From positions 463,699 through 527,698 of the forward strand of contig JAZKBR010000004.1 of assembly GCA_040388535.1 (NCBI GenBank): a DNA stretch of 64,000 nt, in the 5' to 3' direction. Origin of the DNA: Gemmatimonadota bacterium (GTDB lineage Bacteria > Gemmatimonadota > Gemmatimonadetes > Gemmatimonadales > GWC2-71-9). A program made the position numbers and the translations under genes. This document shows, in pieces, positions 10,059 through 52,024 of this stretch. Position 1 is the stretch's first letter. Each line of letters starts with the position of its first letter. The notes under the pieces were generated by a model, which saw nothing but the letters and a program-made list of their open reading frames with translations, made no database searches and was not told where the DNA came from.

Positions 10059-10059
10059 A

Positions 10060-10635: not shown

Positions 10636-10720
10636 ATCTGCTGACCGCCGAAGAGGATCCGAGACAGGGTTGCAACTCCTTGCCGGGCGCAAAGCTAGCC
10701 GAAGTCAGAGGTCCGTTCAA

Positions 10721-26201: not shown

Positions 26202-27122
26202 ATGTCGGCTTCGAACACGATTGCGATCACCGGCGCCTCCGGGATGATTGGCCAGGCCCTCACGGCGGCGCTGCAGGCGGACGGGCGGACGATCCTCCCC
26301 ATCTCGCGGCACGCGATCCCCGGCGGCACGCGCTGGGACCCGGGTCGCGGAATTCTGGATACCGGCGCACTCGAAGGAGTCGACGCCATCATCCATCTCG
26401 CGGGGGAGAGCATCGCCGCCGGCCGCTGGACGCCAGCGCGCAAGACCCTGCTCCGCGAGTCCCGGCTCACGCCGACCCGCTTGCTCGCGGAGACGATCGG
26501 GCGGCTCACTCAGCCACCCCGAGTCCTCATCTCGGCATCGGCAGTAGGGATCTACGGGAACCGTGGCGATGAACGGCTCGACGAGCGCGCCACCTTTGGC
26601 ACCGACTTCCTGGCGCGCCTCGGGCAGGAGTGGGAGGCCGCCGCGGACCCGGCGCGGGCAGTTGGGGTGCGTGTCGTGCACCCGCGCTTCGGTGTGGTCC
26701 TCTCGACGACCGGCGGCGCACTGAAGAAACTGCTGCCCCCGTTCAGGCTTGGCCTGGGGGGTCCGGTCGGCGATGGCAAGCAGTGGCTCGCGTGGATTGC
26801 CATTTCGGATGTGGTGGGAGTGGTGCGGCACCTGTTGGCGAACGCCGACCTGGCTGGCCCCGTGAACGCGGTCGCCCCGGGAGAGGTGACTAATGGAGAG
26901 TTCGGTCGGATCCTCGGCCGGGTGCTGCACCGGCCGGCGGTGTTGCCGCTCCCCGCATTCGCGCTGAAGCTGGCCTTCGGGGAGATGGCCGAGGCGACGT
27001 TACTGGCGAGCCAGCGCGTCGTCCCGGCCGTGCTTTCGCAAAGCGGCTATCAGTGGAGTTTTCCGGAGCTCGAGCCTGCGCTGCAGGCGATCGTGCATCC
27101 GACGGCGGTCGATCGGCGTTAG
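26202..27122 (+). CDS. TIGR01777/YfcH-like NAD-dependent epimerase-family protein (SDR fold plus DUF1731-type C-terminus)
   Basis: IAITGASGMIGQAL Rossmann motif. Length of 306 aa and a C-terminal VVPAVLSQSGYQWSFPELEPAL tail are typical of the family. Start at MSASNT within ORF 25920-27122. Confidence 0.8.
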   Translation: MSASNTIAITGASGMIGQALTAALQADGRTILPISRHAIPGGTRWDPGRGILDTGALEGVDAIIHLAGESIAAGRWTPARKTLLRESRLTPTRLLAETIGRLTQPPRVLISASAVGIYGNRGDERLDERATFGTDFLARLGQEWEAAADPARAVGVRVVHPRFGVVLSTTGGALKKLLPPFRLGLGGPVGDGKQWLAWIAISDVVGVVRHLLANADLAGPVNAVAPGEVTNGEFGRILGRVLHRPAVLPLPAFALKLAFGEMAEATLLASQRVVPAVLSQSGYQWSFPELEPALQAIVHPTAVDRR

Positions 27123-27880
27123 AGCTGCTCGTCGCGGGCAGGACGCTTCCGGCGCTTCACGCCGGCGCCGGCGAGCCCGAGCAGACCGGTGGCCAGCAGC
27201 GACATTGTCGCCGGCTCCGGCACGATTTCAGTGGCACCGACTGGCGTATCGCCCGTCAACCAGAGGCCGTCTGTCTGGCCATCGCCCTTGAGGGTGACCT
27301 TGAGCGTATTGGAGCCGGCGAGGAGGCCGGGCAGCGAGAAGTTCGCGGTGCAGAGCGGGTAATCACTGCTGTTGAAAATGGCGTCCCCGTCGCGACAGAA
27401 GCCGAAGTGATTGCCAATGGCGCGGTCAGTGGATGACGTCAGCGCGGTCGTCGGATTGAACGTGGTGCCGTTGAGCACGAATCCGGTGAGGATGTTATCC
27501 CAGCCGGCGCTCAGGAGCAGGTTCCCGGCAAAGAGCGAGTTGAAGGTGACTTCAAACGTGTAGAAGTACCGGAGCCCGGCATCGGTGTCCTTGTTGTAGT
27601 CGCCCACCCCACCGACTGCAGAGGAGGAGGGCCAGGCGCTGATCCACTTGGCGCCGGAGCCGACTTCATCCGGTTCCCAGACGCCACCAACCGCCGGAAC
27701 GACCCACGCTCCGTACGAGCCGCCCGAGTTGCCGCCTGGACCGTACGGCCCCGACGTCCAGGAGACCAGCCAGTTCGCGTCCTGCGTGCCGACGGCCGAG
27801 GTGCCCGTCTGGAAAGTCTGGGCCGCAAGCGGTGAAGCAATCAGGACCGAGATCAGGGCAACCGAAGAGATGTGACGCAC
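27119..27880 (-). CDS. PEP-CTERM-anchored secreted protein
   Basis: N-terminal signal peptide (VALISVLIASPLAAQT). C-terminal VPEPATMSLLATGLLGLAGAGVKRRKR (PEP motif, TM helix, basic tail). Confidence 0.75.
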   Translation of the reverse strand: MRHISSVALISVLIASPLAAQTFQTGTSAVGTQDANWLVSWTSGPYGPGGNSGGSYGAWVVPAVGGVWEPDEVGSGAKWISAWPSSSAVGGVGDYNKDTDAGLRYFYTFEVTFNSLFAGNLLLSAGWDNILTGFVLNGTTFNPTTALTSSTDRAIGNHFGFCRDGDAIFNSSDYPLCTANFSLPGLLAGSNTLKVTLKGDGQTDGLWLTGDTPVGATEIVPEPATMSLLATGLLGLAGAGVKRRKRPARDEQL

Positions 27881-27905: not shown

Positions 27906-28673
27906 TCAGACGGTCGAGCGACGGCGGCGAACCTTGCCGAGCACACCTGCAAGGCCAGTACCGAAGAGCAGCATCGTGCTCGGCTCGGGTACGACTTCCT
28001 CGGTGTTCGCCGGCGGATCGTAGGCGATATTGAACATCATGTCCTGATAGTCCTTGTCCGAACCGCCACCTGCACCAGTGTAGATGTCTTCGATGCCGGC
28101 AATCCAGTTGCTGCCGGCATTCCCGGGAGGGGCGAAGCCGAAGAGCGCGAACTGATTGTCGAGCCCGGAGTAGGCGTAGTTGCCGTTCGTCAGCAGGACG
28201 TAGAGCCCCCAATTCCCGCCGAACGTGATGGGCGACCCTGGCAGACCACCGTTGAGGGAAGTCCGCAGGCTCGTGGACGCGTCGTAGTAACCCCAATCGG
28301 TATTGGCGCCGGCGATGTCGCCTCCGGCGAGATTGCCACTCAACAGCGAGAAGGAGTAGCTGCCCGCGCCGAAGAGGAACGCCTGAAAACCACCGCCCGC
28401 ACCCTCGAGGTACGTCGTCGGCGTCGGGCCACCATATGGCAGCCAGTTTCCGGGGCGCTGATTGGCGCAGCTCTTACCCGACGTTCCCGCGAGGCCGGTG
28501 ACCACGTAGCCGGAGTTGCAGTAGGTGCCATCGGCGGAGACGTTATCCCAGAATTGCTGGCCGGCGCTGACGTTGTTGGGCGACCCGATGGCGGTCCACG
28601 ACTGGGCGGTCATTGGTGACGCCAGAACGGCCAAAGCCGCCAAGCCATAGAATGATTCCTTGATCGAGCGCAT
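27906..28673 (-). CDS. PEP-CTERM-anchored secreted protein (second, non-identical)
   Basis: Signal peptide (LAALAVLASPMTAQS). C-terminal VVPEPSTMLLFGTGLAGVLGKVRRRR. The GGSDKDYQDMMFNI segment resembles DUF4114-type modules. Confidence 0.75.
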   Translation of the reverse strand: MRSIKESFYGLAALAVLASPMTAQSWTAIGSPNNVSAGQQFWDNVSADGTYCNSGYVVTGLAGTSGKSCANQRPGNWLPYGGPTPTTYLEGAGGGFQAFLFGAGSYSFSLLSGNLAGGDIAGANTDWGYYDASTSLRTSLNGGLPGSPITFGGNWGLYVLLTNGNYAYSGLDNQFALFGFAPPGNAGSNWIAGIEDIYTGAGGGSDKDYQDMMFNIAYDPPANTEEVVPEPSTMLLFGTGLAGVLGKVRRRRSTV

Positions 28674-29074: not shown

Positions 29075-30625
29075 ATGTCGATTCTACCGCGTCGTGGTCA
29101 CGTCCTCGGATTGATCTTCCTCCTTGCCGGATGCAGTTCCTCCGACATCGTCTATCGCGATCGAGCGCCATTCAATGCCGCGCCCGACGTCGCCAGCGGC
29201 CTCCTCGGCTATTACACCACCAGCACCAAACAGACGACTTGCGGCAATTGCCACTCCGGTCACCAGAAAGACTGGTCGACGACGCATCACGCCAAGGCGT
29301 ACTCCACCCTCGTCGCGAGCGGCAAGGCCAGCGCGACCTGCTATACCTGTCACACGCTGACCGGGAACGGCAACGGACTGGTAGGTAATGTCGGCTGGAA
29401 CATGACCCCCGACCCAGGCTATCAGGACGTGCAGTGCGAAAGTTGCCATGGCCCGGGCACCGAGCACGTCAAGCTGCCCGAGAACAAGGCGACCTGGCCG
29501 CTGGCGCGACTCTCGCTCACCAAGGCGAGCGCCAGTTGCGCGGCATGTCACACCGGCATCCACACGCCGTTCGCGGAAGAGTGGGCCAGCAGTGGCCACG
29601 CGAAGCTTGAGGCCCCGCCGCTCGCGAACACCACGTCGAACTGCAAGAATTGCCACGAGGGTCGCACGGCCCTGAAGGCGTGGGGTGTTTCGACCAACTA
29701 TTCCGAACGCGATTCGGCGAGCGTCAACATCGCGACGACTTGCGCGGTATGCCACAATCCACATGGCTCGTCCAACGAGCACCAGCTGCGGTATCCGATC
29801 AATACGCCGGATCCCGACCAGAACCTCTGCATGAAGTGTCACCTCAATCGTGGATCGCCCACGGTGTCGTCGAGTTCCCCGCACGGGGCCGCAGGCTACG
29901 TACTCCTTGGCATCGCGGGATATCGTCCGGCGGGAGTCTCGGTGGACACGCAGGCGGTGCTGTCGACGCACTCGAGTGAGGCGAATCCCAAGTTGTGCGC
30001 GGGCTGTCATGTCGTCGCCTTTGATGTGACCGACCCGGCCAGCGGTGCCACCGTCTTCCATTCGACCGGTCACTCGTTCCGGCCGATCCCCTGTGTCGAC
30101 GGGACGGGCAAGCCGACCGGCCTCACGGACTGCGCCTACACTCCGGCCGCACGGACGTTCAAGTCCTGCACCGCGTCTGGCTGCCATGGTTCTGCAGCGG
30201 TTGCCTCGCAACTCCTGAATACCCTGCGCTCGAGCCTCGCGATCATGTCCGACCAGATCTGGCTCGACCTCAACGGCAACAAGACCGTGGATGCGGCACC
30301 GACGGATGGCGGCTACCTCGCGATCATCAAGCGTGATCGGCCGACCGAACTCTCGACGGTTACCGTGATCACGCCGGCCAAGGGTGCGCTGTTCAACGTC
30401 AGTCTCTTCGGCGAGAATCGGAACGGTCACGGCGACGGCTCGTTTGGAGTGCACAATCCCGTCCTTGCCAGGGCCCTGCTGGCGGCGAATATCACTGAAC
30501 TCCGTGCGGCGTATGCGCTCCCTGCCCCGCCTGCCGCGGTCAATGCGGCCGTCCAGAAGGCGATCGGCGACGCCAAGGTGCGCTTCCCCGCCGCGATGCA
30601 GCAGTCGCTCTCGATGCAGAAGTAG
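29075..30625 (+). CDS. Multihaem c-type cytochrome lipoprotein (8 CXXCH + 1 CX4CH)
   Basis: Lipobox LIFLLAGCSS. Haem motifs CGNCH, CYTCH, CESCH, CAACH, CKNCH, CAVCH, CMKCH and CAGCH, plus CTASGCH. Cytochrome c554-like spacing (CH-x6-W-x2-S/T-x-HA). No CXXCK motif. Confidence 0.85.
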   Translation: MSILPRRGHVLGLIFLLAGCSSSDIVYRDRAPFNAAPDVASGLLGYYTTSTKQTTCGNCHSGHQKDWSTTHHAKAYSTLVASGKASATCYTCHTLTGNGNGLVGNVGWNMTPDPGYQDVQCESCHGPGTEHVKLPENKATWPLARLSLTKASASCAACHTGIHTPFAEEWASSGHAKLEAPPLANTTSNCKNCHEGRTALKAWGVSTNYSERDSASVNIATTCAVCHNPHGSSNEHQLRYPINTPDPDQNLCMKCHLNRGSPTVSSSSPHGAAGYVLLGIAGYRPAGVSVDTQAVLSTHSSEANPKLCAGCHVVAFDVTDPASGATVFHSTGHSFRPIPCVDGTGKPTGLTDCAYTPAARTFKSCTASGCHGSAAVASQLLNTLRSSLAIMSDQIWLDLNGNKTVDAAPTDGGYLAIIKRDRPTELSTVTVITPAKGALFNVSLFGENRNGHGDGSFGVHNPVLARALLAANITELRAAYALPAPPAAVNAAVQKAIGDAKVRFPAAMQQSLSMQK

Positions 30626-30737
30626 TGCTGCCGGTTTGACGATCACGCCCGTCATTCTCGCCCTTCAGCACCCCCGGGACACCGTGACAGGTGTCCCGGG
30701 GGGCTCGGCGTTTCAGGTCCACGATTCGCTCGGTGGA

Positions 30738-32675
30738 ATGGCGGGGGCGCTGCGCGACACCCTGGTGCCACCGCCGCTACCTGAAGGCGTTGCGCGCTTC
30801 GTCCGGATGATCTTCGCCGTGCCGCGCTGGATCCAGATCGGCGGCGTGGTGCTTGGGGCAGTGGTTGCGATGGTATTGCTGACGCTGGCGTGGCGACATC
30901 GCACCGCAATCCTGCTGTGGATCCGGACCCGGAGTCGCCCGCTGCAGGTCACCTTTGCCGGCGGCGTCGCGGTCGTGTTGCTCGTCGCCGCATTTGCCGG
31001 CAAGACCAGTTGGGACTACATGCAGCACGACAACGGCTTCTGTACCGGCTGCCACGTGATGGAAAAGCCATTCGGCAAATTCCAGCAGACCGCCGGCAAG
31101 CATAGCGACCGGAAATGTCACGACTGCCACCAGCAGTCGATCTTTGCGAGCACGCGGCAACTGGTGCTCTGGGTGAGCAATCGTCCGACGGATATCGGCA
31201 AGCACGCGCCCGTGCCGAACTCCCGATGCGAAGGGTGCCACCAACTGATGCAGGGCAAGAAGGCCTGGGAGCACATCCGCAATCTGGCCGGTCACAAGGC
31301 CCACTTCGAGTCGGACTCGAGCGCGCTCAAGGATCTCCAGTGCGTGACCTGCCACGGCGCGGAGGTGCACCGCTTTCTCCCGTCGGCGCGGACCTGTCAG
31401 CAAAGTGGCTGCCATGTCAACCAGTCCATCAAGCTGGCTGGAATGAAGTCGCTCCCCGAGATCAACTGCGTGACCTGTCATGCATTTACCGCCGACCTGC
31501 CGGCGCTGGCCGATCGCGACTCCGCTCGCAAGGCGTTGGTACCGTCGGAGAAGCAGTGCCGCAGTTGTCACCAGATGGATGGCAAGCCGACGGGCTTCGT
31601 GCTGGCCAAGGATCCGCACAAGGGCAGCTGTGGGTCGTGTCACGACGTTCACGCCCACGCGCTCCCCATCGACGCGAAAGCGAGTTGCACGAAGTGCCAC
31701 ACCGATCTGGCGAGCAGTGCCTTCCACAACGGCAAGAACCATCAGCGCGTGAAGACGGAGTGCCTGACCTGTCACAATCCGCACGCTGCCTCGGTCGATG
31801 CCTCCGATTGTGTGGGTTGCCACACCTCGGTGCGAGCGCGCGGCAAGTTCCGGCCACCGTTGCCGTTCGACACCAATGCAGTGCTCAAGCGGCGAGTCGC
31901 GATGAACCCGACGCCGATGCCGTTGCACGCCACGGTAGAGAGCAGCAGTCAAGGAGAGGTCGACGTGCCCGAGCATCGCGGCAAGGGCGATGCGCTGCCG
32001 GAGGATCCTCCGCCCGGAAGTGGACCCCGGGCGGAGACATCCGCCCGCGCCACGCTTGACTCCTTTCCGCACGCCCGCCACACCTCGCTTCCCTGCCTCA
32101 CCTGCCATACCGTCAACCGCGCAAAGAACGGCCTTGTCTTCGAGGCGCCGCGGGGCTGTGACCTCTGTCACCATCAATCCGCCATGGCCGGCAAGGTGGC
32201 CGCGAGCGACTGTCTTCGCTGCCACGCCGCCGCGAAAATCGCGGTCGCGAAACCCACGACGGTGGCAGTGCGCGTCGGGACTCGCGCTCCGGTCCCGCGG
32301 CAGGTGCTCTTCCGGCACGAGATCCACCAGAAGCTTGACTGCGCCGCCTGCCACCAGGCACCGAACATCGTCCCGCCAGACAGCGTCCGGAGCTGCGTGG
32401 CCTGCCACGACCAGCACCACGCCGAGCAACGCGATTGCAGCTCGTGCCACAGTCGCGCCGAAAACCGGACGGCGCACACCCGGGCCACACACACGGGGTG
32501 TGACGCCTGCCACACGGCGACCCGCATCGCGATACTCACGCCATCACGCACCTTCTGTCTCACCTGCCATCAACCACAACGGAATCACCAGCCTGCGGCC
32601 GAGTGCTCGAGTTGTCATTTCCTTGAATCACCAGCCGACTATCGCAAGCACCTGATGCGGGGGAAGGCCGGGTGA
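30738..32675 (+). CDS. Membrane-anchored NapC/NirT-headed giant multihaem cytochrome (19 CXXCH + 1 CX4CH)
   Basis: Two N-terminal hydrophobic helices (IQIGGVVLGAVVAMVLLTLAW; VTFAGGVAVVLLVAAFAG). NapC/NirT-type head follows (FCTGCHVMEKPF...KCHDCH...CEGCH...CVTCH), then 15 more CXXCH. A Pro/Gly-rich linker (EDPPPGSGP) splits it into two modules. Start taken at MAGALRD. Confidence 0.85.
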   Translation: MAGALRDTLVPPPLPEGVARFVRMIFAVPRWIQIGGVVLGAVVAMVLLTLAWRHRTAILLWIRTRSRPLQVTFAGGVAVVLLVAAFAGKTSWDYMQHDNGFCTGCHVMEKPFGKFQQTAGKHSDRKCHDCHQQSIFASTRQLVLWVSNRPTDIGKHAPVPNSRCEGCHQLMQGKKAWEHIRNLAGHKAHFESDSSALKDLQCVTCHGAEVHRFLPSARTCQQSGCHVNQSIKLAGMKSLPEINCVTCHAFTADLPALADRDSARKALVPSEKQCRSCHQMDGKPTGFVLAKDPHKGSCGSCHDVHAHALPIDAKASCTKCHTDLASSAFHNGKNHQRVKTECLTCHNPHAASVDASDCVGCHTSVRARGKFRPPLPFDTNAVLKRRVAMNPTPMPLHATVESSSQGEVDVPEHRGKGDALPEDPPPGSGPRAETSARATLDSFPHARHTSLPCLTCHTVNRAKNGLVFEAPRGCDLCHHQSAMAGKVAASDCLRCHAAAKIAVAKPTTVAVRVGTRAPVPRQVLFRHEIHQKLDCAACHQAPNIVPPDSVRSCVACHDQHHAEQRDCSSCHSRAENRTAHTRATHTGCDACHTATRIAILTPSRTFCLTCHQPQRNHQPAAECSSCHFLESPADYRKHLMRGKAG

Positions 32676-34162
32676 AGCGTCCGGCCATTGCCGTGTGCTG
32701 CCTACTCATCGGGGCCTTGACGACGACACCCCTCGTCGCGCAGGGGTGGCGCCTCCGCTTCGACGCCTATGCCCAGCGGGTCTCGTTCCGGGGCGTCACG
32801 CCCGACAGCGTCACAGCGGGGGAAGTCATCCTCTCCGACAGTGCCGGGCCGGTGACGCGCGACGGGTTCGCGGCGACCTGCGGCTTCGACTCGTGGTGCC
32901 GCTTCTATCGACCGGGCGACATCCATACTGGCATTCCGGCGAGTGTCGGCGTCGACCTCGCGATGTGGGGGCTCGGCATTCCCGGTCTGAGTGTGCGAGT
33001 GAGTGGCCGCAGCATGGGCGATCTCAGCGGTGACCGGCTCTGGCCTGGTACTGCGCCGGCACTCCGCCTCGTCGAGGGCTACGCCGAATACCTGAGAGGC
33101 GGACTCACGGCGCGTGCGGGCCGGCTGTTGCAGCTCGGCCGTCTCGCTGCGACTGGCTCCAGCGGCCTCGACGGAATTCGCAGCACCATTCGCACCAGTA
33201 AAGACCGCCTCGAGTTCGGCGCCTACGCCGGGTGGGGGCTCGCTCGTGGTGCCATCCTGCCGGTCACCTCGCCCGCGGTCAACCCGCTGCTCGACTTCCA
33301 GCCCGGCAATCGCCAGATCGTTGTGGGCGTCACCACTGGCGTCCATCTGGCCAGTTTCGATGCCGAGGCCGAGTACCGGCGCGAACTCGATCCGGCGACC
33401 AACTACATCGTGGCCGAGCGCGCCGCGCTCAGCGCGCAGTACCGCCCGCTGTCGCGCGTCCGCATTGTGACCGGTGCCGACTATGACATCGCACAGGGGC
33501 GGCTGGGCTCGGCCGATGCCACCATCGGGTACAACGGCAAGCGGCTGTGGGCGACGCTCGGCGCCCGACACTATCGACCCTTCTTCGATCTCTGGACAGT
33601 CTGGGGAGTCTTCAGCGCGGTGCCATATGATGGCGCGACGGCGACCGTCGCTGTGACGCCGATTGCTCCGCTGCAGCTTCGGGGACGGGCGGAGTGGTTC
33701 AAGTACCACGATGCCGAGGCGAATACCCCGGCCGTGCCGCTGAAGGATCGCGGGTATCGCTGGGAGCTGGAAGCCACCCTCACGCCGTTGAAGGCGTGGA
33801 CCGTGGAAGTCGGTGGTCACGGTGAACTCCAGCCGGGCGCGTCCTCGAGCGGGATCGATGGGCGGGTGGCCTGGCGCGTGCGCGAGCGACTCGACCTTTC
33901 CGTCAATGGCGGATCACTGGAACGTCCCCTCGAACTGCGATTTCAGGACGCTGGCGTGACCTGGGCCGGTGCCGCGGCGGACTATCGGTTCACGGATCGC
34001 TGGCGCGCGGGGATTTCGGCCGATCAATACTGGGAATCGCGCGACCGTCCAGACGCGCTCTCGTTCGACTGGAATCAGTGGCGTCTCAGCGCGCGCCTCA
34101 GCGTGACATTGAAGTCGTCCGCCGATCGCTGGCAGCTTCCCCCCGCGAGCCGTACCCCGTGA
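32672..34162 (+). CDS. Haem-free secreted protein, putative outer-membrane beta-barrel (porin-like partner of the cytochromes)
   Basis: Signal peptide MKRPAIAVCCLLIGALTTTPLVAQG. No CXXCH motif. Long runs of alternating hydrophobic/polar residues rich in G, Y, R and D (e.g. AEYRRELDPATNYIVAERAALSAQYRPLSRVRIVTGADYDIAQGRLGSADATIGYNG). GTGA overlaps with both flanking cytochrome genes. The function is inferred, not recognised by motif. Confidence 0.5.
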   Translation: MKRPAIAVCCLLIGALTTTPLVAQGWRLRFDAYAQRVSFRGVTPDSVTAGEVILSDSAGPVTRDGFAATCGFDSWCRFYRPGDIHTGIPASVGVDLAMWGLGIPGLSVRVSGRSMGDLSGDRLWPGTAPALRLVEGYAEYLRGGLTARAGRLLQLGRLAATGSSGLDGIRSTIRTSKDRLEFGAYAGWGLARGAILPVTSPAVNPLLDFQPGNRQIVVGVTTGVHLASFDAEAEYRRELDPATNYIVAERAALSAQYRPLSRVRIVTGADYDIAQGRLGSADATIGYNGKRLWATLGARHYRPFFDLWTVWGVFSAVPYDGATATVAVTPIAPLQLRGRAEWFKYHDAEANTPAVPLKDRGYRWELEATLTPLKAWTVEVGGHGELQPGASSSGIDGRVAWRVRERLDLSVNGGSLERPLELRFQDAGVTWAGAAADYRFTDRWRAGISADQYWESRDRPDALSFDWNQWRLSARLSVTLKSSADRWQLPPASRTP

Positions 34163-35616
34163 TCCGTCGCCTCGGATTGTTGTTCGCGGCGGCAGTCACG
34201 CTGTTCACGACGCCGGGCGTCGCCCAGCAGCGTGCCGAGCGGTTCGATCATACCCGGCACGCCAGGCTCTTCGTGAGCTGCGCGCTCTGCCATGCCGGTA
34301 TCGATGCAGCAGACGCCGCCATCTTCCCGCCGTCAACAAGTTGCGTCAGCTGTCACAACGGCGCAGTCCAGCCCCGAGTCGAGTGGCAGCCGCGTAGCGT
34401 GCCGCGCGTATCGAATCTCCGCTTCGACCATCGAGCGCACTCAGCAGCGCGCCGGAACCGCGGCGATACCACCTCCACTTGTTCTGATTGTCACGCCCCG
34501 CCCGCGAGCGGGTGGATGCAGGTACGAGCCCCGGTCGCCCCGCAATGCGTGAGCTGTCACACCGCCGGTGGAGGCGATCATCTCACCCTGCCCGATACGG
34601 CGTGCGCGACCTGCCACCTGCCGCTGGCACAGGCTCGCGCCCTGACCCGCGAACGCATCAGCGCCTTCCCGGCTCCGCCCTCGCACCAGCTGGCCAACTT
34701 CGTCACGTCGTCGGGACATGGTGCGCTGGCGAAGCGCACCACGGGAGCAAACCGCGTGGCGCAGAGCTGTGCCACCTGCCACGCGCGCGACTTCTGTGCG
34801 TCGTGCCACGTGAATGCTTCGGAGCTTGGGGCCATCCAGGCGCTGCTGCCAGACCCGCGCTCACTGCTCGCCCCCCACGTGCTGAAGGCGCCGGCGTCGC
34901 ACGCCGCGACCGATTTCGAGACCCGTCACGGCAAGCTCGCAGGCACCAACGCGGCCACGTGTCGGAGCTGCCACACGCAGGAGAGCTGCGCGACCTGTCA
35001 CTCGGGGGCGATGCCCGCAGCAGCACGGGCACTCCTCGCTGCGGCGCCGGGCCGGGCTGCGGGAGCGCAGACCGTGGCCAGGATGCCCGCGAGTCACACA
35101 CCCACGTGGCGCAAGGCCGGACACGGGCCGGTCGCAGCCGCGTCGAACCGCAGTTGTAGCTCGTGCCATCAACGCCAGGAGTGCCTGACCTGTCACGTGC
35201 CCAACACCGCACGGCGCGGGGCGTTTCACCCGGCGGGCTACCTCACCAGGCATCCGGCGGATGGCTACTCGCGCGCCAGTTCCTGCGCCGATTGCCACAA
35301 TACGGGTGAGTTCTGCCAGAGCTGCCACAATCAGGCCGGCGTGACAGCCAAACGCACCTTGCTCGGCGCCTCAGGGTATCACGACAACAATCGGCAGTTC
35401 TTCCTCGGGCACGGCAAGGCAGCGCGCCAGGGGCTGGAGAGCTGTGTCTCCTGCCACGTCGAGCGCGACTGCCTCACCTGTCACTCGGTAGTAGGAGGGC
35501 GCGGCTTCAACCCGCACGGCCCCGGGTTCAATGCCGAACTGATGCTTCGCAAGAATCCGCAGCTCTGCACTGCGTGTCATGGCACGGCGATTCCGCGGCG
35601 ACGGGCCACGCCCTGA
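34159..35616 (+). CDS. Secreted 16-haem c-type cytochrome (cytochrome c3/c7-like paired-CXXCH arrays)
   Basis: Signal peptide VIRRLGLLFAAAVTLFTTPGVAQQ. 16 CXXCH motifs, five of them as CXXCH-x4/5-CXXCH pairs (e.g. CATCHARDFCASCH). GTG start overlaps the upstream stop. Confidence 0.85.
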   Translation: MIRRLGLLFAAAVTLFTTPGVAQQRAERFDHTRHARLFVSCALCHAGIDAADAAIFPPSTSCVSCHNGAVQPRVEWQPRSVPRVSNLRFDHRAHSAARRNRGDTTSTCSDCHAPPASGWMQVRAPVAPQCVSCHTAGGGDHLTLPDTACATCHLPLAQARALTRERISAFPAPPSHQLANFVTSSGHGALAKRTTGANRVAQSCATCHARDFCASCHVNASELGAIQALLPDPRSLLAPHVLKAPASHAATDFETRHGKLAGTNAATCRSCHTQESCATCHSGAMPAAARALLAAAPGRAAGAQTVARMPASHTPTWRKAGHGPVAAASNRSCSSCHQRQECLTCHVPNTARRGAFHPAGYLTRHPADGYSRASSCADCHNTGEFCQSCHNQAGVTAKRTLLGASGYHDNNRQFFLGHGKAARQGLESCVSCHVERDCLTCHSVVGGRGFNPHGPGFNAELMLRKNPQLCTACHGTAIPRRRATP

Positions 35617-35632: not shown

Positions 35633-36721
<1,089 letters not shown>

Positions 36722-36735
36722 CGAGATGCCCTTCC

Positions 36736-38088
36736 TTGTCTGAGACTATCCGCTTTCCCGCCGGTTTCCTCTGGGGTGCCGCCACCTCGGCCTATCAGGT
36801 CGAAGGCTCGCCACTCGCCGATGGCGCTGGCCCCAGCAACTGGCACCGCTTCGTGCACGAGCCCGGCCGGATCGACAACGGCGATAGCGGTGACATTGCC
36901 TGCGATCACTACCACCGCTGGGCCGACGATGTGGTACTGATGCGCGGGCTCGGACTCAACGCCTACCGCTTCAGCGTCTCCTGGAGCCGGATTCTCCCCA
37001 GCGGGCGCGGGTCGATCAACAAACCCGGACTCGACTTCTATGACCGTCTGGTCGATCGCCTGCTTCAGTATGGTATCGCACCGTCAGTCACCCTCTACCA
37101 CTGGGATCTTCCCGCTGCGCTCGACGACCTCGGCGGCTGGCTCAACCGCGATGTGGCCGGCTGGTTTGCCGACTACGCCGGAGTTGTCGTGCGCGCGCTC
37201 GGCGATCGAGTGCCGATGTGGACGACCCTGAACGAGCCGTGGGTCGTCTCCGATGCCGGATACCTGCACGGTGTTCATGCCCCCGGCCACCGCAGCACCG
37301 CCGGGACCCCGCTGGTCAGTCACAACCTGCTGCGGGCGCACGGCGCCGGGATGCAGGCGATTCGTGCCGAAGGCGGCAAGTCGGCCGGACTGGTCGTAAA
37401 CCTTGAACCGAAGTACCCCGCCACGGACCGCGCTGCTGATGTCGCCGCCACTCGGCGCGCCGACGCCTATATGAATCGCCAGTTTCTCGACCCGGTATTC
37501 CTCGGAAGTTACCCCGAAGAACTTGCCGAGATTTTTGGCGTCGACTGGCCCCGCTTTCCGGACGAGGACTTCGCACTCATCCAGCAACCGCTCGACTTTC
37601 TTGGCGTCAACTACTACACCAGGAACGTGGTCTGCGATGATCCGTCGGCGCTCCCCATTCGCGCCGGCCGCGTCCGCCAGAATGCAGCACTGCACACGAC
37701 ACTCGACTGGGAAGTCTACCCGGCGGCACTCACCGATGTACTGCTCTGGATCACGGAGCGCTATCCATCACTACCATTGTATATCACCGAGAACGGTGCG
37801 GCCTTCCTGGATACCGACCCCGCCGACGCCGAACTCGTGCATGATCCGCTGCGCGTCGACTATTTCCGCTCTCATCTGATGGCCGTGCACGATGCGATCT
37901 ACCAGGGCGCCGATGTTCGCGGCTACTTCGCCTGGTCACTGCTCGACAACTTCGAGTGGAGCGCCGGCTTCGCCAAGACCTTCGGCCTCTTCCGCGTGGA
38001 CAAGCCGAGCCAGCGCCGAATTCCCAAAGCCAGTTCTCGCTTCTACACGGATGTGATTCGTTCTCACGGCGAAGCGCTCGGTCGGTAG
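36736..38088 (+). CDS. GH1 beta-glucosidase
   Basis: FPAGFLWGAATSAYQVEG, acid/base TLNEPW, nucleophile YITENGAA. TTG start only 14 nt from the divergent ATPase start. Confidence 0.9.
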   Translation: MSETIRFPAGFLWGAATSAYQVEGSPLADGAGPSNWHRFVHEPGRIDNGDSGDIACDHYHRWADDVVLMRGLGLNAYRFSVSWSRILPSGRGSINKPGLDFYDRLVDRLLQYGIAPSVTLYHWDLPAALDDLGGWLNRDVAGWFADYAGVVVRALGDRVPMWTTLNEPWVVSDAGYLHGVHAPGHRSTAGTPLVSHNLLRAHGAGMQAIRAEGGKSAGLVVNLEPKYPATDRAADVAATRRADAYMNRQFLDPVFLGSYPEELAEIFGVDWPRFPDEDFALIQQPLDFLGVNYYTRNVVCDDPSALPIRAGRVRQNAALHTTLDWEVYPAALTDVLLWITERYPSLPLYITENGAAFLDTDPADAELVHDPLRVDYFRSHLMAVHDAIYQGADVRGYFAWSLLDNFEWSAGFAKTFGLFRVDKPSQRRIPKASSRFYTDVIRSHGEALGR

Positions 38089-41000
38089 CGGGTCCCAACG
38101 TCATCGCCCAGGTCGATCTCGACCGGATGCTCACGACCGTCGCGCACGAGGTCGATGATGACTGCACCATCGGTCACCCGTGTCGGTGATGTAGTGGATT
38201 GCACCGTTGTCGACCCGGCAGACCGCCTCACGACGATGCGGTAGCGCGTGCCCTCGCCCGGGAGCCGATACGTCACCGTGAATCCGGGCCAATTGCCCGG
38301 GATGCAGGGCCGCAGCACCAGCATCTTGCCGTCGACCGTCGTCACACCCAGCAGTGATTCGAAGGCGACCCGGAACATCCACCCCGCCGAACCCGTGTAC
38401 CACGTCCAGCCGCCGCGACCGGTATGCGGCGCCTCGCCGTAGACATCGGCCGCCACGACATACGGTTCCACCTGGTAGGTCGCGATGGCCTCGACCGAGC
38501 CGCCGCGGGTGACCGGGCTGAGCATTTCGAAGAGGTGTACTGCCCGCTCGCGTCGACCCGCCTCTGCCAATGCACGAACCGCCCAGAGCGCCGCGTGAGT
38601 GTATTGCCCACCATTCTCACGGACGCCAGGCAGATACCCCTTGATGTAGCCGGGGTCGTGCGGCGTCTTGTCGAAGGGCGGGGTCAACAGGCGGATGATG
38701 CCGGCCCGCTCATCGACCAGTCGCAGCTCCATCGCATCGAGCGCTGTGGCGGCCCGCTCTGGCGAGGCCACACCCGCAAGTACCGACCATGCCTGCGCGA
38801 TCGCATCGATCTGGCATTCGTCACTCGACGCGGATCCGATCGGCGCACCATCATCGTAGTAGGCGCGACGATACCAGCCGCCATCCCACCCACCGTCATT
38901 GAGCGCCACGTGCAGCGTCCGCATCCGTTCACGGTACCGCTCGGCGCGTTCAACCTCACCCCGCGCAACCACGGTGGGGAGGAAGCGCTCGAGAATCAGG
39001 TAGAGGAAGAAGCCCATCCAGACCGACTCGCCGCGGCCGAGTCGTCCGACGCGATTCATGCCGTCGTTCCAGTCACCGGTGCCGATGAACGGGAGGTTGT
39101 GGACCCCGCCAGCGAGAGACCGATCGAGCGCCCGACAGCAATGTTCGTAGACGGATCCCGAGGTGCCCGAATCCGTTGGTGCCAGGAAGGCCTCGTCTTC
39201 CCCTTCATGCAGCGCGCACGCAGTGAGAAAGCGGGCCCGCTCATCATAGACCGACGAATCACCCGTGGTGTCGACGTAGTATTGCGTCAGCAGCGGCAGC
39301 CAGAGGAGGTCATCGGCAAACCGGGTGCGAATGCCACGCCCCGCCGGAGGATGCCACCAGTGCATCACGTCGCCCTCGACGAACTGATTGGCGGCGTGCA
39401 GCACGATCTGCTCGCGAGTGAGATGCGGCGCGTGGTAGACGAGCGAGGCCGCGTCCTGGAGCTGGTCACGATAGCCGAAGGCACCTCCCGACTGATACAT
39501 CGCGGAGCGGGCCCAGATGCGGCAACTCAGGTTCTGGTACGCCAGCCAGCCATTGACCATCAAGTCGATCGCCGGCACCGGCGTCTCGATCTGCACGGCA
39601 CCCAGCCGTTCCCGCCAGGCCGCCTGCACGACGTCGAGCTCCGCCTCGATCGCATCGGGTGACCCGAACCGGGCAATGATTTCCAGCGCTGCCGCGCGCG
39701 ACGGCGATTGTCCGAGAAGCATCGACCATTCGACGGTGGCACCCGGCGCTACGTCGGCGGTGACGCGAAACGCCGCGCACGGATCGAGGCCGGGACCAGT
39801 GCGTCCGTCGAGCGGCAGGTCCCGGCGGATCGCGTCGGGCGCGGCTGCACTGCCGTAGCGCCCAAGGAAGGTCGCACGATCACCGGTGAACTCGACCGGA
39901 GCGATCGACTCACCATTGATGGCGGCGAAGGCAACCGCGCTCCCGAAATCCTGGCTCGCCGCGTTCCGCGCGAGCAACACGCGACCGGCCCCGGCCGACT
40001 CCGTGACCGTGGTGGCAGCCGTCGCCGATCGCACGCCGCCGAGGACCCATTCGCCGAACCAGGCGAGGGCCAGGGAGCGACTCTCGGTCCCGCGATTGGT
40101 AACCCGCACTCGCACAATTTTCACCGGAAGTTCATCCGCGACGAACGCGACGACCTCCTGTACCAGATCACTGGAGAGATGATCCCACTTCGTGTACCCG
40201 AAGCCGTGCCTGGTCTCATATGCACCGTTACCAGGAACGGGCGCCGGCGTGGGTGACCAGTAGACTCCGTTGCTACGGTCGACGAGATAGAGCGCCTCGC
40301 CGGCCGGGTCGCTGACGGGGTCGTTGAACCATGGGGTGAGCCGGTTCTCCCGGCTGTTGCCGACCCAGGTGAAGCCGAGCCCGGTCTCCGATGCCACGAA
40401 GCCGACGTTCGGGTTGGCCACGACGTTGGTCCAGGGAAGCGGCGGGAGTCGAAGGCCATCTGCCGTGCGATCGATCCGGATGACATACTCGTTTCCAGCA
40501 GTATTGAAGCCGCCGAAGCCGTTCGGAAATTGCAGCCCATCGCCAGACGCGGCGACCACCTCACCCCCAGCAGCGGGGAGCACCGTAGGCGGACGTTCGC
40601 GTGCCAGCATCTCGAGCGAATCAATGATCCCTTCAGTGGTTGCGCCGCTATGATCGACGGGCCGGGCCGCGGCATCGCGCAGCAGCTGCAGGACTTCGTC
40701 GCGAGTGTGGCCCGCGGCGAGAATCCCCACCAGCTGAATCGATGCGCCCGCAGGAATGCTGAAGCGGCGGCGCACCGCGAAGAGCGGGTCCAGCACATTG
40801 CCAGTGGTCCCGGAGAGCGAGCTGGTGGCGGTCAGGGCGACCGGATTGGCGAGCGACCGACCGCGACCAATAAAGCGCGCGCGATCGGTTTCGAATTCCG
40901 GTGCGCCAAGAGTCACCGACGCCGGGTCAACCAGGGCATGGCCGAGAAAGAGGGTCGGATCTTCGGGGCTGCGCTGACGACGACGCGCGAGCAATCCCGA

Positions 41001-41468
41001 GAACTCAGGAAGTGATTCAGTCTGAACAAACAGCTTCGAGAATGCGGGGTGGCCGGCGTCGGCACCTGCCACATTGAGGACGACTTCCAGACAGGTGGTC
41101 AGTTCGAGGTGCCGTGCCACCTTCCCCATGTTGTGGATGGTGTAGCTGCGCTGCTCGAAATTCCCCGCCGCGCCAACGGAGACCTCGGTGCGAACCTCGA
41201 TCCCCTCATCGTGGCGAACGATGCGCACCAGTCCTGGGGCGAGGCTGACGCGATACCAGCCGGGTCGCTGGGGAGCAGGCTGCACTCCCGCCGACCAGAA
41301 GTGACCGCTCTCGACATCGCGCAGGTAGGCGAAGAACCCTTCGGCATCACGGGTGTCGTCACCCGACCAACGGGTAAGCTCGATCTCGCCAAGTCGTGAA
41401 TAGCCGGCGCCGGCCGAGGAAATCCCGAGGTGATATTCACCGTTGGATAGCAGGTGCTTCTGGGTCAT
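38064..41468 (-). CDS. GH94 phosphorylase of the NdvB/1,2-beta-oligoglucan phosphorylase type
   Basis: 1134 aa. N-terminus LSNGEYHLGISSAGAGYSRLGEIELTRWSGDDTRDAEGFFAYLRDVESGHFWSAG matches the phosphorylase part of cyclic beta-1,2-glucan synthases. Catalytic region GTGDWNDGMN. Start ATG overlaps the upstream stop (ATGA). Confidence 0.8.
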   Translation of the reverse strand: MTQKHLLSNGEYHLGISSAGAGYSRLGEIELTRWSGDDTRDAEGFFAYLRDVESGHFWSAGVQPAPQRPGWYRVSLAPGLVRIVRHDEGIEVRTEVSVGAAGNFEQRSYTIHNMGKVARHLELTTCLEVVLNVAGADAGHPAFSKLFVQTESLPEFSGLLARRRQRSPEDPTLFLGHALVDPASVTLGAPEFETDRARFIGRGRSLANPVALTATSSLSGTTGNVLDPLFAVRRRFSIPAGASIQLVGILAAGHTRDEVLQLLRDAAARPVDHSGATTEGIIDSLEMLARERPPTVLPAAGGEVVAASGDGLQFPNGFGGFNTAGNEYVIRIDRTADGLRLPPLPWTNVVANPNVGFVASETGLGFTWVGNSRENRLTPWFNDPVSDPAGEALYLVDRSNGVYWSPTPAPVPGNGAYETRHGFGYTKWDHLSSDLVQEVVAFVADELPVKIVRVRVTNRGTESRSLALAWFGEWVLGGVRSATAATTVTESAGAGRVLLARNAASQDFGSAVAFAAINGESIAPVEFTGDRATFLGRYGSAAAPDAIRRDLPLDGRTGPGLDPCAAFRVTADVAPGATVEWSMLLGQSPSRAAALEIIARFGSPDAIEAELDVVQAAWRERLGAVQIETPVPAIDLMVNGWLAYQNLSCRIWARSAMYQSGGAFGYRDQLQDAASLVYHAPHLTREQIVLHAANQFVEGDVMHWWHPPAGRGIRTRFADDLLWLPLLTQYYVDTTGDSSVYDERARFLTACALHEGEDEAFLAPTDSGTSGSVYEHCCRALDRSLAGGVHNLPFIGTGDWNDGMNRVGRLGRGESVWMGFFLYLILERFLPTVVARGEVERAERYRERMRTLHVALNDGGWDGGWYRRAYYDDGAPIGSASSDECQIDAIAQAWSVLAGVASPERAATALDAMELRLVDERAGIIRLLTPPFDKTPHDPGYIKGYLPGVRENGGQYTHAALWAVRALAEAGRRERAVHLFEMLSPVTRGGSVEAIATYQVEPYVVAADVYGEAPHTGRGGWTWYTGSAGWMFRVAFESLLGVTTVDGKMLVLRPCIPGNWPGFTVTYRLPGEGTRYRIVVRRSAGSTTVQSTTSPTRVTDGAVIIDLVRDGREHPVEIDLGDDVGTRYRPSASP

Positions 41469-44400: not shown

Positions 44401-44590
44401 CTCCGCCGGTGAAGCCGAAGTCCAGCCTCATCGCTCGGCCTCGACGTCCCACATCGCCGTGGAGAGTGAGTGCCACGCCATCGGCCGGGTGGGCGCTCCA
44501 GCCTTCGATCCGGTCGAAGGCATCGAGCACCTGCGCGGTGTCCCCCCGCAAAGGCACCAGCAGCGAGGCGAGCAGCAAGGCGCTCATCAT
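41465..44590 (-). CDS. Secreted multidomain putative glycoside hydrolase: N-terminal beta-sandwich, F5/8 type C (discoidin) domain and (alpha/alpha)6 GH15-like catalytic domain
   Basis: Signal peptide MMSALLLASLLVPLRG. Discoidin-like AIDGNGITVWRAG...FGAVSLVWE. GH15-like SYERSWIRDGALTSTALLRFGH...YQYPDGKIPC. Activity unknown. Confidence 0.6.
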   Translation of the reverse strand: MMSALLLASLLVPLRGDTAQVLDAFDRIEGWSAHPADGVALTLHGDVGRRGRAMRLDFGFTGGGYAIARRALALPLHDNYAFTFWIKGSAAPNTLEFKLIDASGENVWWYTERDRHFSGAWEKITIRKRQIAFAWGPKGGGELREVASLELVITAGSGGGKGSVWFDDLAIAPLPDSGPYTLTPAITATSSEAGHTASAAIDGNGITVWRAGRARASLTLDFLRSREFGAVSLVWEPEHAPVRLTLLASEDARRWHVVESRQRGRGLSDHFYLPDSDVRYLRLDVVAGSASRPVGLREWRIEPLESAASRNAFFKLVASDAARGTFPRYLSGEAAAWTVVGVNGARDEALLGEDGALEPGTGAFSIEPFLYLEGKLRSWNDAQRSASLAQGRLPIPTVSWRVGDATLDVTAFARGSATASSLIGRYRITNHGASPLRTTLYLAIRPFQVNPPWQFLGTPGGTSRIDSLRWDRSQVVVNGLREVRALTAGARFGAVPFARGDIVEYLRARALPVGTTVQDAFGAASGALSWPVNLAPGASTTVDIEVPFDRGFLPPLRAAGVDTALQQVTAGWAHSVDAASITLPGEGARITNSIASTIGYILVNRDSAALQPGSRSYERSWIRDGALTSTALLRFGHASEVRDFLLWYARYQYPDGKIPCCVDRRGADPVAEHDSHGEFIYLVMEYFRHTGDRALLAHLWPNVRAAVGYLDSLRRTHRTAEYRSGEQALYFGLLPPSISHEGYSAKAMHSYWDDFFALRGFKDATTMAALLGQTEDAHRLAASRDEFAADLYASIDGVMKARKIDFIPGAADLGDFDATSTTIALSPADELPRLPRAALERTFERYFANASARSVAGNAWVNYTPYELRTVGAMLRLGWKERALTMLDTFLADQEPTAWNQWPEVVWHDRTAPKFLGDLPHTWVGSDFLRSAADLFVYEREADSALIVGAGIRDAWLADSGVAVNRLSTWWGPLSYTAKHVGAATVVTIAAGVAVPPGGVLLHAPGSVRPTRALVNGAAVPISPDGTVTLRALPARIEFDQ

Positions 44591-45408
44591 CCCTTGACGC
44601 TCCCCGCCATGATCCCCTGGATGTAGTAGCGCTGCAGGAAGAGGAAGGCGATGAACACCGGCACCACCGTGACCACGGCGCCGGCCATCATCAGCTCGAC
44701 ATCCTGGACGTGTTCACCGGCAAGATTCGCGAGCGCCACGGGAAGATTGTAGCGCGCATCGTCGCTCAGGACGATGAGCGGCCACATGAAGTCATTCCAG
44801 GCACTCAGGAAGGTGAAGACGCCTAGTGTCGCGAGCACGGGACCGAGCGACGGGAGCACGATCGAGCGGAAGACGCGGAATTCACTGGCGCCATCGAGCC
44901 GCGCGGCATCGAGCAGATCGTCAGGGATCGAGAGGGCATACTGCCGCACCAGGAAGATGCCGTAGATCGGCGCCAGCACCGGGATCATCGCTCCGAAGAG
45001 CGTGTTGATCAGCCCCATCTCGCGGAGCAGGATGAACATCGGCAGCATGGCGACCTGCCCCGGGATCACCATCCCGGCCAGCAGCGCGCGGAAGATCGCC
45101 TTGCTACCTCGGAAGCGCAGCTTCGCGAAGGCATAGCCCGCCATTCCGGTGATCAGGACGGCGAGGATCGTCCCGCCGAGGGCGATGATCAGCGAGTTGG
45201 CGAAGTAGCGCCCCATGTTCTGCGACAAAAAGAGCGCGCGATAGTGCTCGAGCGAGGGATGGTGCGGCAGCAGCGGTGGCGGCGAGGTGTTGGCCTCCCC
45301 CGACCGCATCAACGACGCGGAGACCATCCACAGCAACGGACTCGCCGCGAGGAGTGCCCCCACGAAGAGCAGGGCATGGAGCCCAACCGAACGCCAGCGG
45401 AGCTTCAC
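44587..45408 (-). CDS. Carbohydrate ABC transporter permease (MalG-like)
   Basis: 6 TM helices and EAA-type loop (AARLDGASEFRVFRSIVLP). GTG start overlaps the upstream stop (GTGA). Confidence 0.85.
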   Translation of the reverse strand: MKLRWRSVGLHALLFVGALLAASPLLWMVSASLMRSGEANTSPPPLLPHHPSLEHYRALFLSQNMGRYFANSLIIALGGTILAVLITGMAGYAFAKLRFRGSKAIFRALLAGMVIPGQVAMLPMFILLREMGLINTLFGAMIPVLAPIYGIFLVRQYALSIPDDLLDAARLDGASEFRVFRSIVLPSLGPVLATLGVFTFLSAWNDFMWPLIVLSDDARYNLPVALANLAGEHVQDVELMMAGAVVTVVPVFIAFLFLQRYYIQGIMAGSVKG

Positions 45409-48987: not shown

Positions 48988-49050
48988 CGGATCGCCCCAG
49001 AGGGTGGAGCAGCGATGGGGCACCGGTCTGGTGCCCCACCGCCATTCAGG

Positions 49051-51990: not shown

Positions 51991-52024
51991 ACAACCTCCC
52001 TCCAAGGTGGACTACGGTACTGCG

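Follow-up and report, generated by a model that had tools for sequence, protein, structure and literature searches.

The DNA analysed here is a stretch of 64,000 nucleotides, called the window below, from contig JAZKBR010000004.1 of a metagenome-assembled genome (MAG) from a soil Gemmatimonadota bacterium. It carries a cassette of four genes encoding, in order, a lipoprotein cytochrome (MHC9), a cytochrome with 20 haem-binding motifs (MHC20, the target of this study), an outer-membrane β-barrel protein (OMP496) and a secreted cytochrome (MHC16) (Table 1). The cassette is self-contained and conserved, and it has the composition of a porin–cytochrome conduit. In the target, a head related to NrfH continues into a long multihaem extension within a single polypeptide. 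The cassette context was absent from an earlier, sequence-only reading of the target, and it is the strongest clue to function.

The target open reading frame (ORF), as translated from 30738 to 32675 on the forward strand, has 645 residues and no internal stops. It contains 19 CXXCH motifs and one CX4CH motif, which confirms the count of 15 further CXXCH and one CX4CH beyond a tetrahaem head (4 + 15 + 1) given in the sequence-only reading. The first cysteines of the CXXCH motifs lie at residues 102, 127, 164, 202, 244, 274, 298, 317, 342 and 358 and, in the C-terminal module (C-module), at residues 453, 474, 492, 535, 553, 567, 588, 607 and 623; the lone CX4CH is at residue 220. All 40 cysteines of MHC20 belong to the 20 motifs, a distribution hardly attributable to chance.

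A word-indexed search in 5.8 billion proteins yielded 644 relatives of MHC20, more than 120 of them full-length. The best 120 were nearly all 600–690 residues long and matched with a query coverage of 96–100% and an identity of 45–79%. In an alignment of 112 homologues (46–79% identity), on which the conservation results below are based, all 20 motifs were conserved, the exceptions being four single-sequence deviations and the motif at residue 317. The latter site (residues 317–323; window ~31686..31706) is CXXCH in 54 and CX4CH in 58 of the 112 homologues and thus shows an indel polymorphism inside a haem motif. Furthermore, 22 histidines outside the motifs and four methionines are conserved, numbers that would suffice for the distal ligands of 20 haems. 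In the N-terminal module (N-module), the conserved candidate distal histidines beyond the head are residues 294, 305, 330, 335 and 349.

Table 1. Positions in the window of the cassette genes, of the parts of MHC20 and of a separate ACIII-like operon (TM, transmembrane; ACIII, Alternative Complex III; pLDDT, AlphaFold2 per-residue confidence score)
Feature	Position	Strand	Remarks
MHC9	29075..30625	+	First cassette gene; lipoprotein cytochrome; 8 CXXCH + 1 CX4CH
MHC20 (target)	30636 or 30738..32675	+	Second cassette gene; 20 haem motifs
Probable N-terminal extension, 34 codons from TTG	30636..30737	+	NCBI call, alignment, tblastn
TM helix 1, residues ~31-52	30828..30893	+	Alignments; AlphaFold2 helix 30-53, pLDDT > 90; conserved PPLPGGV motif before it
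Arg-rich loop, residues 53-68, predicted cytoplasmic	30894..30941	+	Between the TM helices; Lys + Arg counts
TM helix 2, residues ~69-89, NapC/NirT-type anchor	30942..31004	+	Directly before haem 1; aligns with NrfH TM helix
NrfH-like head, haems 1-4 (C102 CXXCHxM, C127, C164, C202), and fifth site C220 (CX4CH)	31005..31415	+	Profile comparisons
Rest of N-module, six haems C244-C358, c7/c3-like	31416..31874	+	Pfam Cytochrome_C7 match at 241-303
Variable linker, residues 380-440, probably disordered	31875..32057	+	Contains EDPPPGSGPRAE and majority RGKGD motif; length variation, pLDDT < 50
C-module, nine haems C453-C623, c3/c7-like units	32058..32672	+	Pfam Cytochrom_c3_2 at 473-558, Cytochrom_CIII at 519-611
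OMP496	32672..34162	+	Third cassette gene; outer-membrane β-barrel, ~24 strands, signal peptide, 496 residues
MHC16	34159..35616	+	Fourth cassette gene; secreted cytochrome, 16 CXXCH, signal peptide
Pentahaem ActA-like ORF	10060..10692	-	5 CXXCH
Fused molybdopterin/4Fe-4S ActB-like ORF, 1016 residues	7008..10058	-	ACIII-like operon
NrfD-like ActC	5648..7006	-	ACIII-like operon
Monohaem lipoprotein-like ORF	4544..5146	-	ACIII-like operon
Further polytopic membrane ORF	3273..4544	-	ACIII-like operon

The start of MHC20 is probably TTG 30636, giving a protein of 679 residues, and not the ATG at 30738 used in the sequence-only reading, which had left the junction between 30625 and 30738 to be checked. 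ATG 30738 (Met35 of the longer form) is probably internal because its methionine stands opposite alanine in most homologues, because similarity in the homologue alignment extends upstream of it, because the NCBI record for the same contig lists a hypothetical protein of 679 residues (V4558_12200) matching TTG 30636, and because tblastn matches in four related loci (L001–L003 and L012) begin at residue 1–3 of the 679-residue form. The reading frame is open from 30384, and TTG 30636 lies 10 nt past the stop codon of MHC9.

The source is a MAG, and frameshifts or truncations are evident in some of the database relatives, so that the long ORF might in principle be an assembly or frameshift artefact joining a tetrahaem NapC/NirT gene to a gene for a periplasmic cytochrome. 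This explanation is hardly credible. An architecture of 620–690 residues is common to more than 100 independent clusters that derive from NCBI, JGI, ENA and Logan assemblies, and conservation is continuous over the boundary between head and extension. In a scan that took one genome per species, at least 388 genomes had an MHC20 relative, and near full-length, single-frame tblastn matches were found among the best 80, on which the locus analysis was carried out. No frameshift or stop splits the ORF, and an artefactual fusion was rejected, since the single ORF is conserved in many assemblies.

The same scan bears on the suggestion that the fusion might be specific to one lineage. MHC20 is not a one-off, and the best 80 of the 388 loci are all labelled Gemmatimonadota/Gemmatimonadales except two contigs; related heads joined to other numbers of haems occur elsewhere. 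The two contigs (L035 and L055, from DATJFF01) carry the cassette, and their bin is labelled Vicinamibacterales (Acidobacteriota), a label that could reflect either mis-binning or lateral transfer. MHC20 and its close homologues mostly go under the name "hypothetical protein" in the databases, and a few carry a generic cytochrome label.

The head was assigned with a profile made from a 37-sequence alignment of relatives found by phmmer. Searched with HMMER against all Protein Data Bank (PDB) sequences, this profile gave Desulfovibrio vulgaris NrfH (2j7a_C/2vr0) as its top match (E=3.1e-9), spanning the TM helix, the FC-x-x-CH-x-M motif of the first haem, the S-x-H motif and haems 2 and 3. A comparison of the head with NrfH by hhalign gave a probability of 97.9% (E=3.4e-13), and all 37 diverse heads of the clade matched the Pfam family PF03264 (Cytochrom_NNT) at E<=0.01, the best at 1e-10. 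On the basis of these three results, the head is placed in the NapC/NirT superfamily as a divergent member resembling NrfH. The isolated head of the target (residues 66–232) scored 24.5 bits against PF03264, marginally over the gathering score of 24.1. Positions 3–133 of the 138 in the NrfH model TIGR03153 aligned to residues 74–206 with 26.7 bits, compared with an equivalog cut-off of 134.2, and by this measure the head would be a relative of NrfH rather than its orthologue. The homology to NrfH emerged solely from profile searches; a phmmer search of the PDB with the full protein gave only weak c3/NapB matches, with NrfH absent.

The details of the first haem site agree with this assignment. 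Its motif reads C102-T-G-C-H106-V-M108, and Met108 aligns with Met49 of NrfH; it does not vary among the 112 homologues and occurs in at least 90% of the 37 distant heads. The motif that provides the Met ligand of haem 1 in the NrfH subfamily is thus retained. TM helix 2 is followed by C102, and four CXXCH motifs fall within residues 102–206, as in the NapC/NirT arrangement. A fifth haem site follows straight after the four NrfH-type sites and is conserved in the clade, being CX4CH in the target and CXXCH in distant members. The NapC/NirT-like nature of the N-terminal head, as first proposed, therefore stands, but the single TM helix proposed with it does not, as the anchor has a second helix upstream.

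Both hydrophobic helices of this anchor are conserved in the homologue alignments and appear in the AlphaFold2 model. The 16-residue loop between them holds on average 5.4 lysines and arginines, compared with 0.06 per residue in the N-terminal tail and 0.05 per residue after TM helix 2. By the positive-inside rule, these values indicate a hairpin with the loop probably inside and the N-terminal tail and haem domain outside. The same topology is expected from the Arg-rich loop taken together with the c-type haem domain, which is necessarily periplasmic.

Beyond the head, matches to the Pfam families Cytochrome_C7, Cytochrom_c3_2 and Cytochrom_CIII are spread over residues 241–611, and residues 521–594 weakly resemble tetrahaem cytochrome c3 in a phmmer search of the PDB. 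Judged from these matches, the extension consists of concatenated c3/c7-like units with about 32 residues per haem. A Pro/Gly-rich linker parts an 11-haem N-module from a 9-haem C-module. Such a division had been suggested from the sequence-only reading, and it is upheld by the homologues, in which the segment bounded by the invariant residues T379 and D441 is between 32 and 77 residues long and has low conservation except for a majority RGKGD motif, as well as by pLDDT values below 50 over the linker.

The three other genes of the cassette match the make-up of a porin–cytochrome system. First, MHC9 starts at ATG 29075, preceded by GGAGGGAGC, and its N-terminus, MSILPRRGHVLGLIFLLAG/C, has a lipobox (LLAG/C). 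Its best PDB match is chain A of entry 6r2q (MtrA; E=1.9e-5), and it has weak NCBIfam matches to the DmsE/GSU2203 decahaem families (49 bits for DmsE, compared with a cut-off of 192). The sequence table tags this 333-residue chain of the Mtr complex entry as "Cystathionine beta-synthase", a label that looks wrong, since the chain is presumably MtrA. Second, OMP496 was modelled by AlphaFold2 as a signal helix and 24 long β-strands (pLDDT 82.8; predicted template modelling score, pTM, 0.74), and Foldseek matched the model to the 24-strand FimD usher, to TonB-dependent receptors and, at rank 14, to MtrB (6r2q_B; E=3.7e-7). OMP496 itself has no Pfam or NCBIfam match, and 13 of 79 homologues match the Pfam family OMP_b-brl. 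Its C-terminus (34090..34162) is without the usual terminal aromatic residue of a β-signal; a conserved tail, ADRWxLPPAxR..P, follows the last strand with low pLDDT, and its coding sequence overlaps the start of MHC16. Third, MHC16 starts at GTG 34159 with VIRRLGLLFAAAVTLFTTPGVAQQ and has Pfam matches to Cytochrome_C7, to MtrC/F domain II/IV and to Paired_CXXCH.

The genes are closely packed, with 10 nt between MHC9 and MHC20 and GTGA start/stop overlaps at the MHC20/OMP496 (32672..32675) and OMP496/MHC16 (34159..34162) junctions. A promoter and terminator scan was uninformative, giving no promoter-like site and one terminator-like site, on the minus strand, with none on the plus strand. The same gene order recurs in the best 80 of the 388 loci, where MHC9 was found in 73, MHC20 in 80, OMP496 in 73 and MHC16 in 67; most of the loci that lack one cassette gene end near a contig edge. 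The flanking genes of the window (speA, an ABC ATPase and GH1) recur in just three or four close relatives among these 80. A barrel gene is thus adjacent to, and co-conserved with, genes for secreted and lipoprotein multihaem cytochromes, which is the layout of porin–cytochrome systems.

We favour, with moderate confidence, an outward trans-envelope conduit in which quinol is oxidised at the MHC20 head and electrons pass by way of the barrel and surface cytochromes to an extracellular acceptor. The four genes would be co-transcribed, with MHC20, OMP496 and MHC16 translationally coupled. The two-helix hairpin would hold MHC20 in the cytoplasmic membrane, with its haem domain in the periplasm and its first haem (CXXCHxM) at the membrane surface, where the head, by homology, would exchange electrons with the quinol/quinone pool. 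The 16 further haems, probably with bis-histidine ligation, would continue as a wire into the periplasm; electrons would hop along the 20 haems, and the C-module, tethered by the linker, would pass them to MHC16 and/or MHC9. Either of these may sit in the 24-strand barrel, and the lipoprotein and/or MHC16 may reach the exterior. The final acceptors would be Fe(III)/Mn(IV) minerals or humic matter under anaerobic conditions. The analysis itself establishes the haem motifs with their conservation, the homology of the head to NrfH, the charge signal for the topology, the operon structure, the fold of the barrel and the gene order across loci, whereas haem loading, quinol activity, contact between the components and the direction of electron flow are inferred throughout. 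Outward flow is favoured because relatives of the ImcH type are tied to reduction (PMC6295460, PMC4251993) and because the gene neighbourhood is heterotrophic.

A stronger form of this proposal holds that one polypeptide both taps the quinol pool and spans the whole periplasm into a barrel-embedded cytochrome, giving a hard-wired conduit of 45 haems without a soluble shuttle. This is tentative and somewhat doubtful. MtrA has about 33 residues per haem and its 10 haems measure ~100 Å (PMC5566968), and a length sufficient to bridge the periplasm has been argued for PCC3 cytochromes with 21–27 haems (PMC9900912). By analogy with these, an extended chain of 20 haems could reach 150–200 Å. The number of haems and the neighbouring porin and cytochrome genes make it plausible that MHC20 spans the periplasm. 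That MHC20 would replace separate periplasmic shuttles, as the sequence-only reading had supposed, is a further step of interpretation, and the cassette still encodes a separate 16-haem secreted cytochrome.

Several findings weigh against the outward-conduit reading of MHC20. First, the head is remote from characterised quinol dehydrogenases. Full-length MHC20 scored 19.9 bits against PF03264, below the gathering score, and a phmmer search with the single head sequence (residues 66–232) among 1.84 billion representative sequences found just 243 relatives, of which those inspected were multihaem proteins with the same head, or fragments, and not canonical tetrahaem proteins of the NapC/CymA/NrfH type. 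The quinol-site residues, for which the earlier reading had advised an alignment, did not turn out to be conserved. NrfH Asp89 stands opposite an invariant Gln141 in the head alignment, NrfH Lys82 falls in a 9-residue segment without a counterpart in the MHC20 head, and the alignments of MHC20 homologues and heads have no invariant lysine between haems 2 and 3. The roles of these residues at the NrfH quinol site reportedly go back to Rodrigues et al. 2006/2008; Lys82 is equivalent to CymA Lys91 (PMC2762525). A quinol site in the MHC20 head, if present, would thus be built differently from that of NrfH and CymA, and the quinol chemistry proposed here is deduced from the position of the head and its fold family rather than from any catalytic residues that are conserved.

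Second, an N-terminal tail of 50–64 residues that crosses the membrane without a signal peptide is unusual. Third, the AlphaFold2 model of MHC20, made from the 112-sequence alignment, is poor beyond the anchor and head and the C-terminal part (mean pLDDT 64.5, pTM 0.40), and a Foldseek search of the PDB with this model found nothing meaningful (best E=5.3). The flexible linker of about 50 residues could let both modules fold back together. Finally, known members of the Gemmatimonadota are mostly aerobes, and in view of an aerobic phylum and of an ACIII-like operon in the same window, an anaerobic outward pathway is not a given. This operon (3273..10692, minus strand) would provide a second, conventional quinol:cytochrome c route.

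The ACIII-like operon, as part of an aerobic chain, bears equally on the possibility that the cassette works in reverse and takes up electrons from Fe(II), Mn(II), reduced humics, a cathode or a partner cell, with the head acting as a quinone reductase or the wire feeding periplasmic acceptors that lead to oxidases. Porin–cytochrome systems are bidirectional, CymA and MtoAB/PioAB homologues have been assigned to Fe(II) oxidisers (PMC6295460, PMC5566968), and PCC3, the closest analogue in layout, is found in Fe(II) oxidisers (PMC5566968, PMC9900912); nothing computed here fixes the direction. However, no genes for carbon fixation or lithotrophy were seen in the 64-kb window, where the neighbours are carbohydrate and housekeeping genes, electron transfer from Fe(II) to quinone is uphill, and the fused NapC/NirT relatives of the ImcH type have so far been linked only to the reduction of extracellular acceptors (PMC6295460). 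We consider electron uptake unlikely, though by no means far-fetched.

The content of the cassette itself argues against a further alternative, in which MHC20 belongs to a periplasmic respiratory module as an anchor, electron store and donor to soluble substrates or reductases, and the barrel is a substrate channel or unrelated. The usual electron acceptors of NrfH, NapC, TorC and CymA are periplasmic reductases (PMC4251993, PMC3279761), a role as capacitors has been suggested for large haem counts (PMC9900912), and OMP496 shows no sequence homology to MtrB. However, there is no catalytic subunit (NrfA, a molybdoenzyme or an HAO/OTR-like protein) in or beside the cassette, and all conserved ligands resemble those of electron-transfer haems. 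Furthermore, translation of the barrel gene is coupled to that of two cytochrome genes, all three being conserved together in about 70 of the 80 loci, and a 24-strand barrel is far wider than a diffusion porin requires. A purely periplasmic role is improbable on these grounds.

Compared to NrfH, the outward conduit proposed here would start from a similar element: an N-terminal TM helix followed immediately by haem 1 with CXXCHxM, S-x-H before haem 2 and equal spacing of haems 1–4. NrfH is, however, a tetrahaem protein of ~160 residues with one TM helix that docks to NrfA, whereas the target has 645–679 residues, 20 haems and a two-helix hairpin, and there is no NrfA near it. With its size and 20 motifs, the target also falls outside the NapC/NirT family proper (~20 kDa, tetra- or pentahaem). 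The pentahaem TorC/DorC proteins illustrate that a NapC/NirT head can bear an extra C-terminal haem domain, and GSU1996 (dodecahaem) and HmcA (16-haem) are examples of c7/c3 units strung together into long wires in the periplasm. TorC adds just one haem, whereas GSU1996 and HmcA are soluble and without a quinol-facing head, and HmcA needs separate membrane subunits.

Like the target, ImcH (GSU3259) of Geobacter sulfurreducens is a c-type cytochrome of the inner membrane that has at least two TM helices, a region resembling NapC/NirT and additional haems, and it is implicated in extracellular electron transfer (PMC4251993, PMC6295460). Its homologues have three TM helices, an atypical CX3CH first motif and 6–10 haem motifs in ~500 residues (PMC6295460, PMC4251993), and their genes never adjoin mtrAB-type genes (PMC6295460). 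The target, with two TM helices, a CXXCHxM first motif, 20 haems and a porin–cytochrome operon, is set apart by this published description of ImcH, and the ImcH architecture was not seen among the inspected relatives of the head.

Two classes of porin–cytochrome systems also resemble the cassette. PCC3 (He et al. 2017) likewise pairs a large β-barrel porin with cytochromes that are very rich in haem and have a low residue-to-haem ratio (PMC5566968, PMC9900912). It also has a separate five-TM inner-membrane protein (PMC5566968) of ~300 residues with two HX13H motifs, proposed to be a dihaem b-type cytochrome, and occurs mainly in Proteobacteria. Membership in PCC3 was rejected, as the cassette comprises four genes and no five-TM inner-membrane protein; its flanks, PEP-CTERM genes and an ABC ATPase gene, are not conserved. 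In the target, the inner-membrane module of PCC3 would be replaced by a c-type, NrfH-like head covalently fused to the wire.

The MtrCAB, MtoAB and Pcc (OmaB-OmbB-OmcB) systems with CymA follow the route proposed for the cassette, from an inner-membrane NapC/NirT cytochrome through periplasmic haems to a cytochrome within an outer-membrane barrel and on to a lipoprotein cytochrome. The specific likenesses are a weak one of MHC9 to MtrA/DmsE and the presence of MtrB among the structural matches of OMP496. In MtrCAB systems, by contrast, the tetrahaem CymA is a protein of its own, with its gene at another locus, and the periplasm is crossed by means of soluble shuttles (STC, FccA, PpcA); the haem numbers are 9/20/16 in the cassette compared with 10/4/10 in MtrCAB/CymA systems. 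OMP496, with ~24 strands in 496 residues, showed no sequence homology to MtrB in Pfam/NCBIfam searches or homologue scans. MtrB has 26 strands.

Full-text literature searches found no description of either the MHC20 protein or the cassette. The nearest reports are general accounts of MAGs with porin–cytochrome clusters and the mention of a "putative mtrABC" from a Gemmatimonadetes bin (PMC4411801). Cytochromes with a fused NapC/NirT region are already known, as are porin–cytochrome clusters in MAGs.

How electrons cross a periplasm of 15–25 nm is still debated, and model organisms use small cytochromes that diffuse or are loosely associated. A head fused to a 16-haem extension, encoded beside its partners in the outer membrane, would offer a simple alternative with a compact genetic basis. 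If the hard-wired form of the proposal holds, the cassette would represent a previously undescribed type of porin–cytochrome system and would extend extracellular electron transfer to the Gemmatimonadota, a major phylum of soils whose known members are mostly aerobic heterotrophs, giving soil and sediment members a respiratory capacity for mineral or humic reduction or for electron uptake. The relatives in at least 388 species-level genomes are mostly annotated as hypothetical proteins, and standard NapC/NirT models miss such long fused members, as full-length MHC20 falls below the Pfam threshold.

The same head, a TM helix followed by CXXCHxM, is found joined to extensions of several lengths: ~10–12 haems in proteins of 270–330 residues; 17 haems in a protein of ~444 residues; ~20 haems in the MHC20 family and in a single-TM Gemmatimonadota variant of 586 residues; and 24, 27, 30 and 34 haems in proteins of up to 831 residues. 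The named relatives include a Myxococcales protein called "NapC/NirT family cytochrome c" by NCBI and a protein from a Chloroflexota MAG. If the hard-wired reading of MHC20 is correct, NrfH-like heads with 10–34 haems in other phyla would form a broader class of "anchored wires" coupled to quinol. Within this clade, heads seem as a rule to be fused to a wire. No good evidence was found for stand-alone heads, the short ones being contig-end fragments or frameshifts where checked. Four ORFs of ~480 residues (P0340, P0370, P0310 and P0281), in which haems 3–5 only were matched, were considered as ImcH-like or N-module-only proteins and rejected as frameshifted or truncated copies of the same family. 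The 411-residue P0241, a candidate stand-alone N-module, stops at a contig end, and the 4-haem P0294, a candidate stand-alone head, shares a 90% cluster with a 323-residue member; both were rejected.

Two of the more distant relatives lie in informative surroundings. On a metagenome contig (L081, 1647..12150), a 30-haem head relative (P0305) is located inside a cytochrome-rich cluster that includes a 712-residue cytochrome with collagen-like and CarboxypepD_reg domains and a 416-residue ORF without a Pfam match, which could be a porin. The Chloroflexota MAG contig JACQUK010000008.1 (L084, 100..17335) encodes a complete 17-haem relative adjoining genes for system II cytochrome c maturation (ResB, CcsA, DsbD) and NrfD/4Fe-4S gene pairs, and it also holds further multihaem cytochromes, one of them of the collagen/CarboxypepD_reg kind. 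This locus suggests that the anchored-wire head is also used, without a porin, in a lineage that is probably monoderm.

The remaining features of the window were recorded for context. Two paralogous PEP-CTERM-sorted secreted proteins are encoded directly upstream of the cassette and divergently from it (27119..27880 and 27906..28673, both minus strand); one PEP-CTERM gene adjoins the cassette in the two closest relatives (L001 and L002) and not elsewhere. Three long ORFs of 372–578 residues (29084..30655, 30777..32513 and 32702..33820, all minus strand) lie opposite the cytochrome and barrel genes and are taken as the usual artefact of DNA with ~65% G+C, not as genes. A carbohydrate-use block at 35633..53308 comprises an ABC ATPase, GH1, GH94, two permease genes, a glucoamylase-like gene, a TonB-dependent receptor and a LacI regulator. 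The plus strand also carries three large genes for Ser/Thr protein kinases, two of which are neighbours, at 14206..17966 and 55582..58281.

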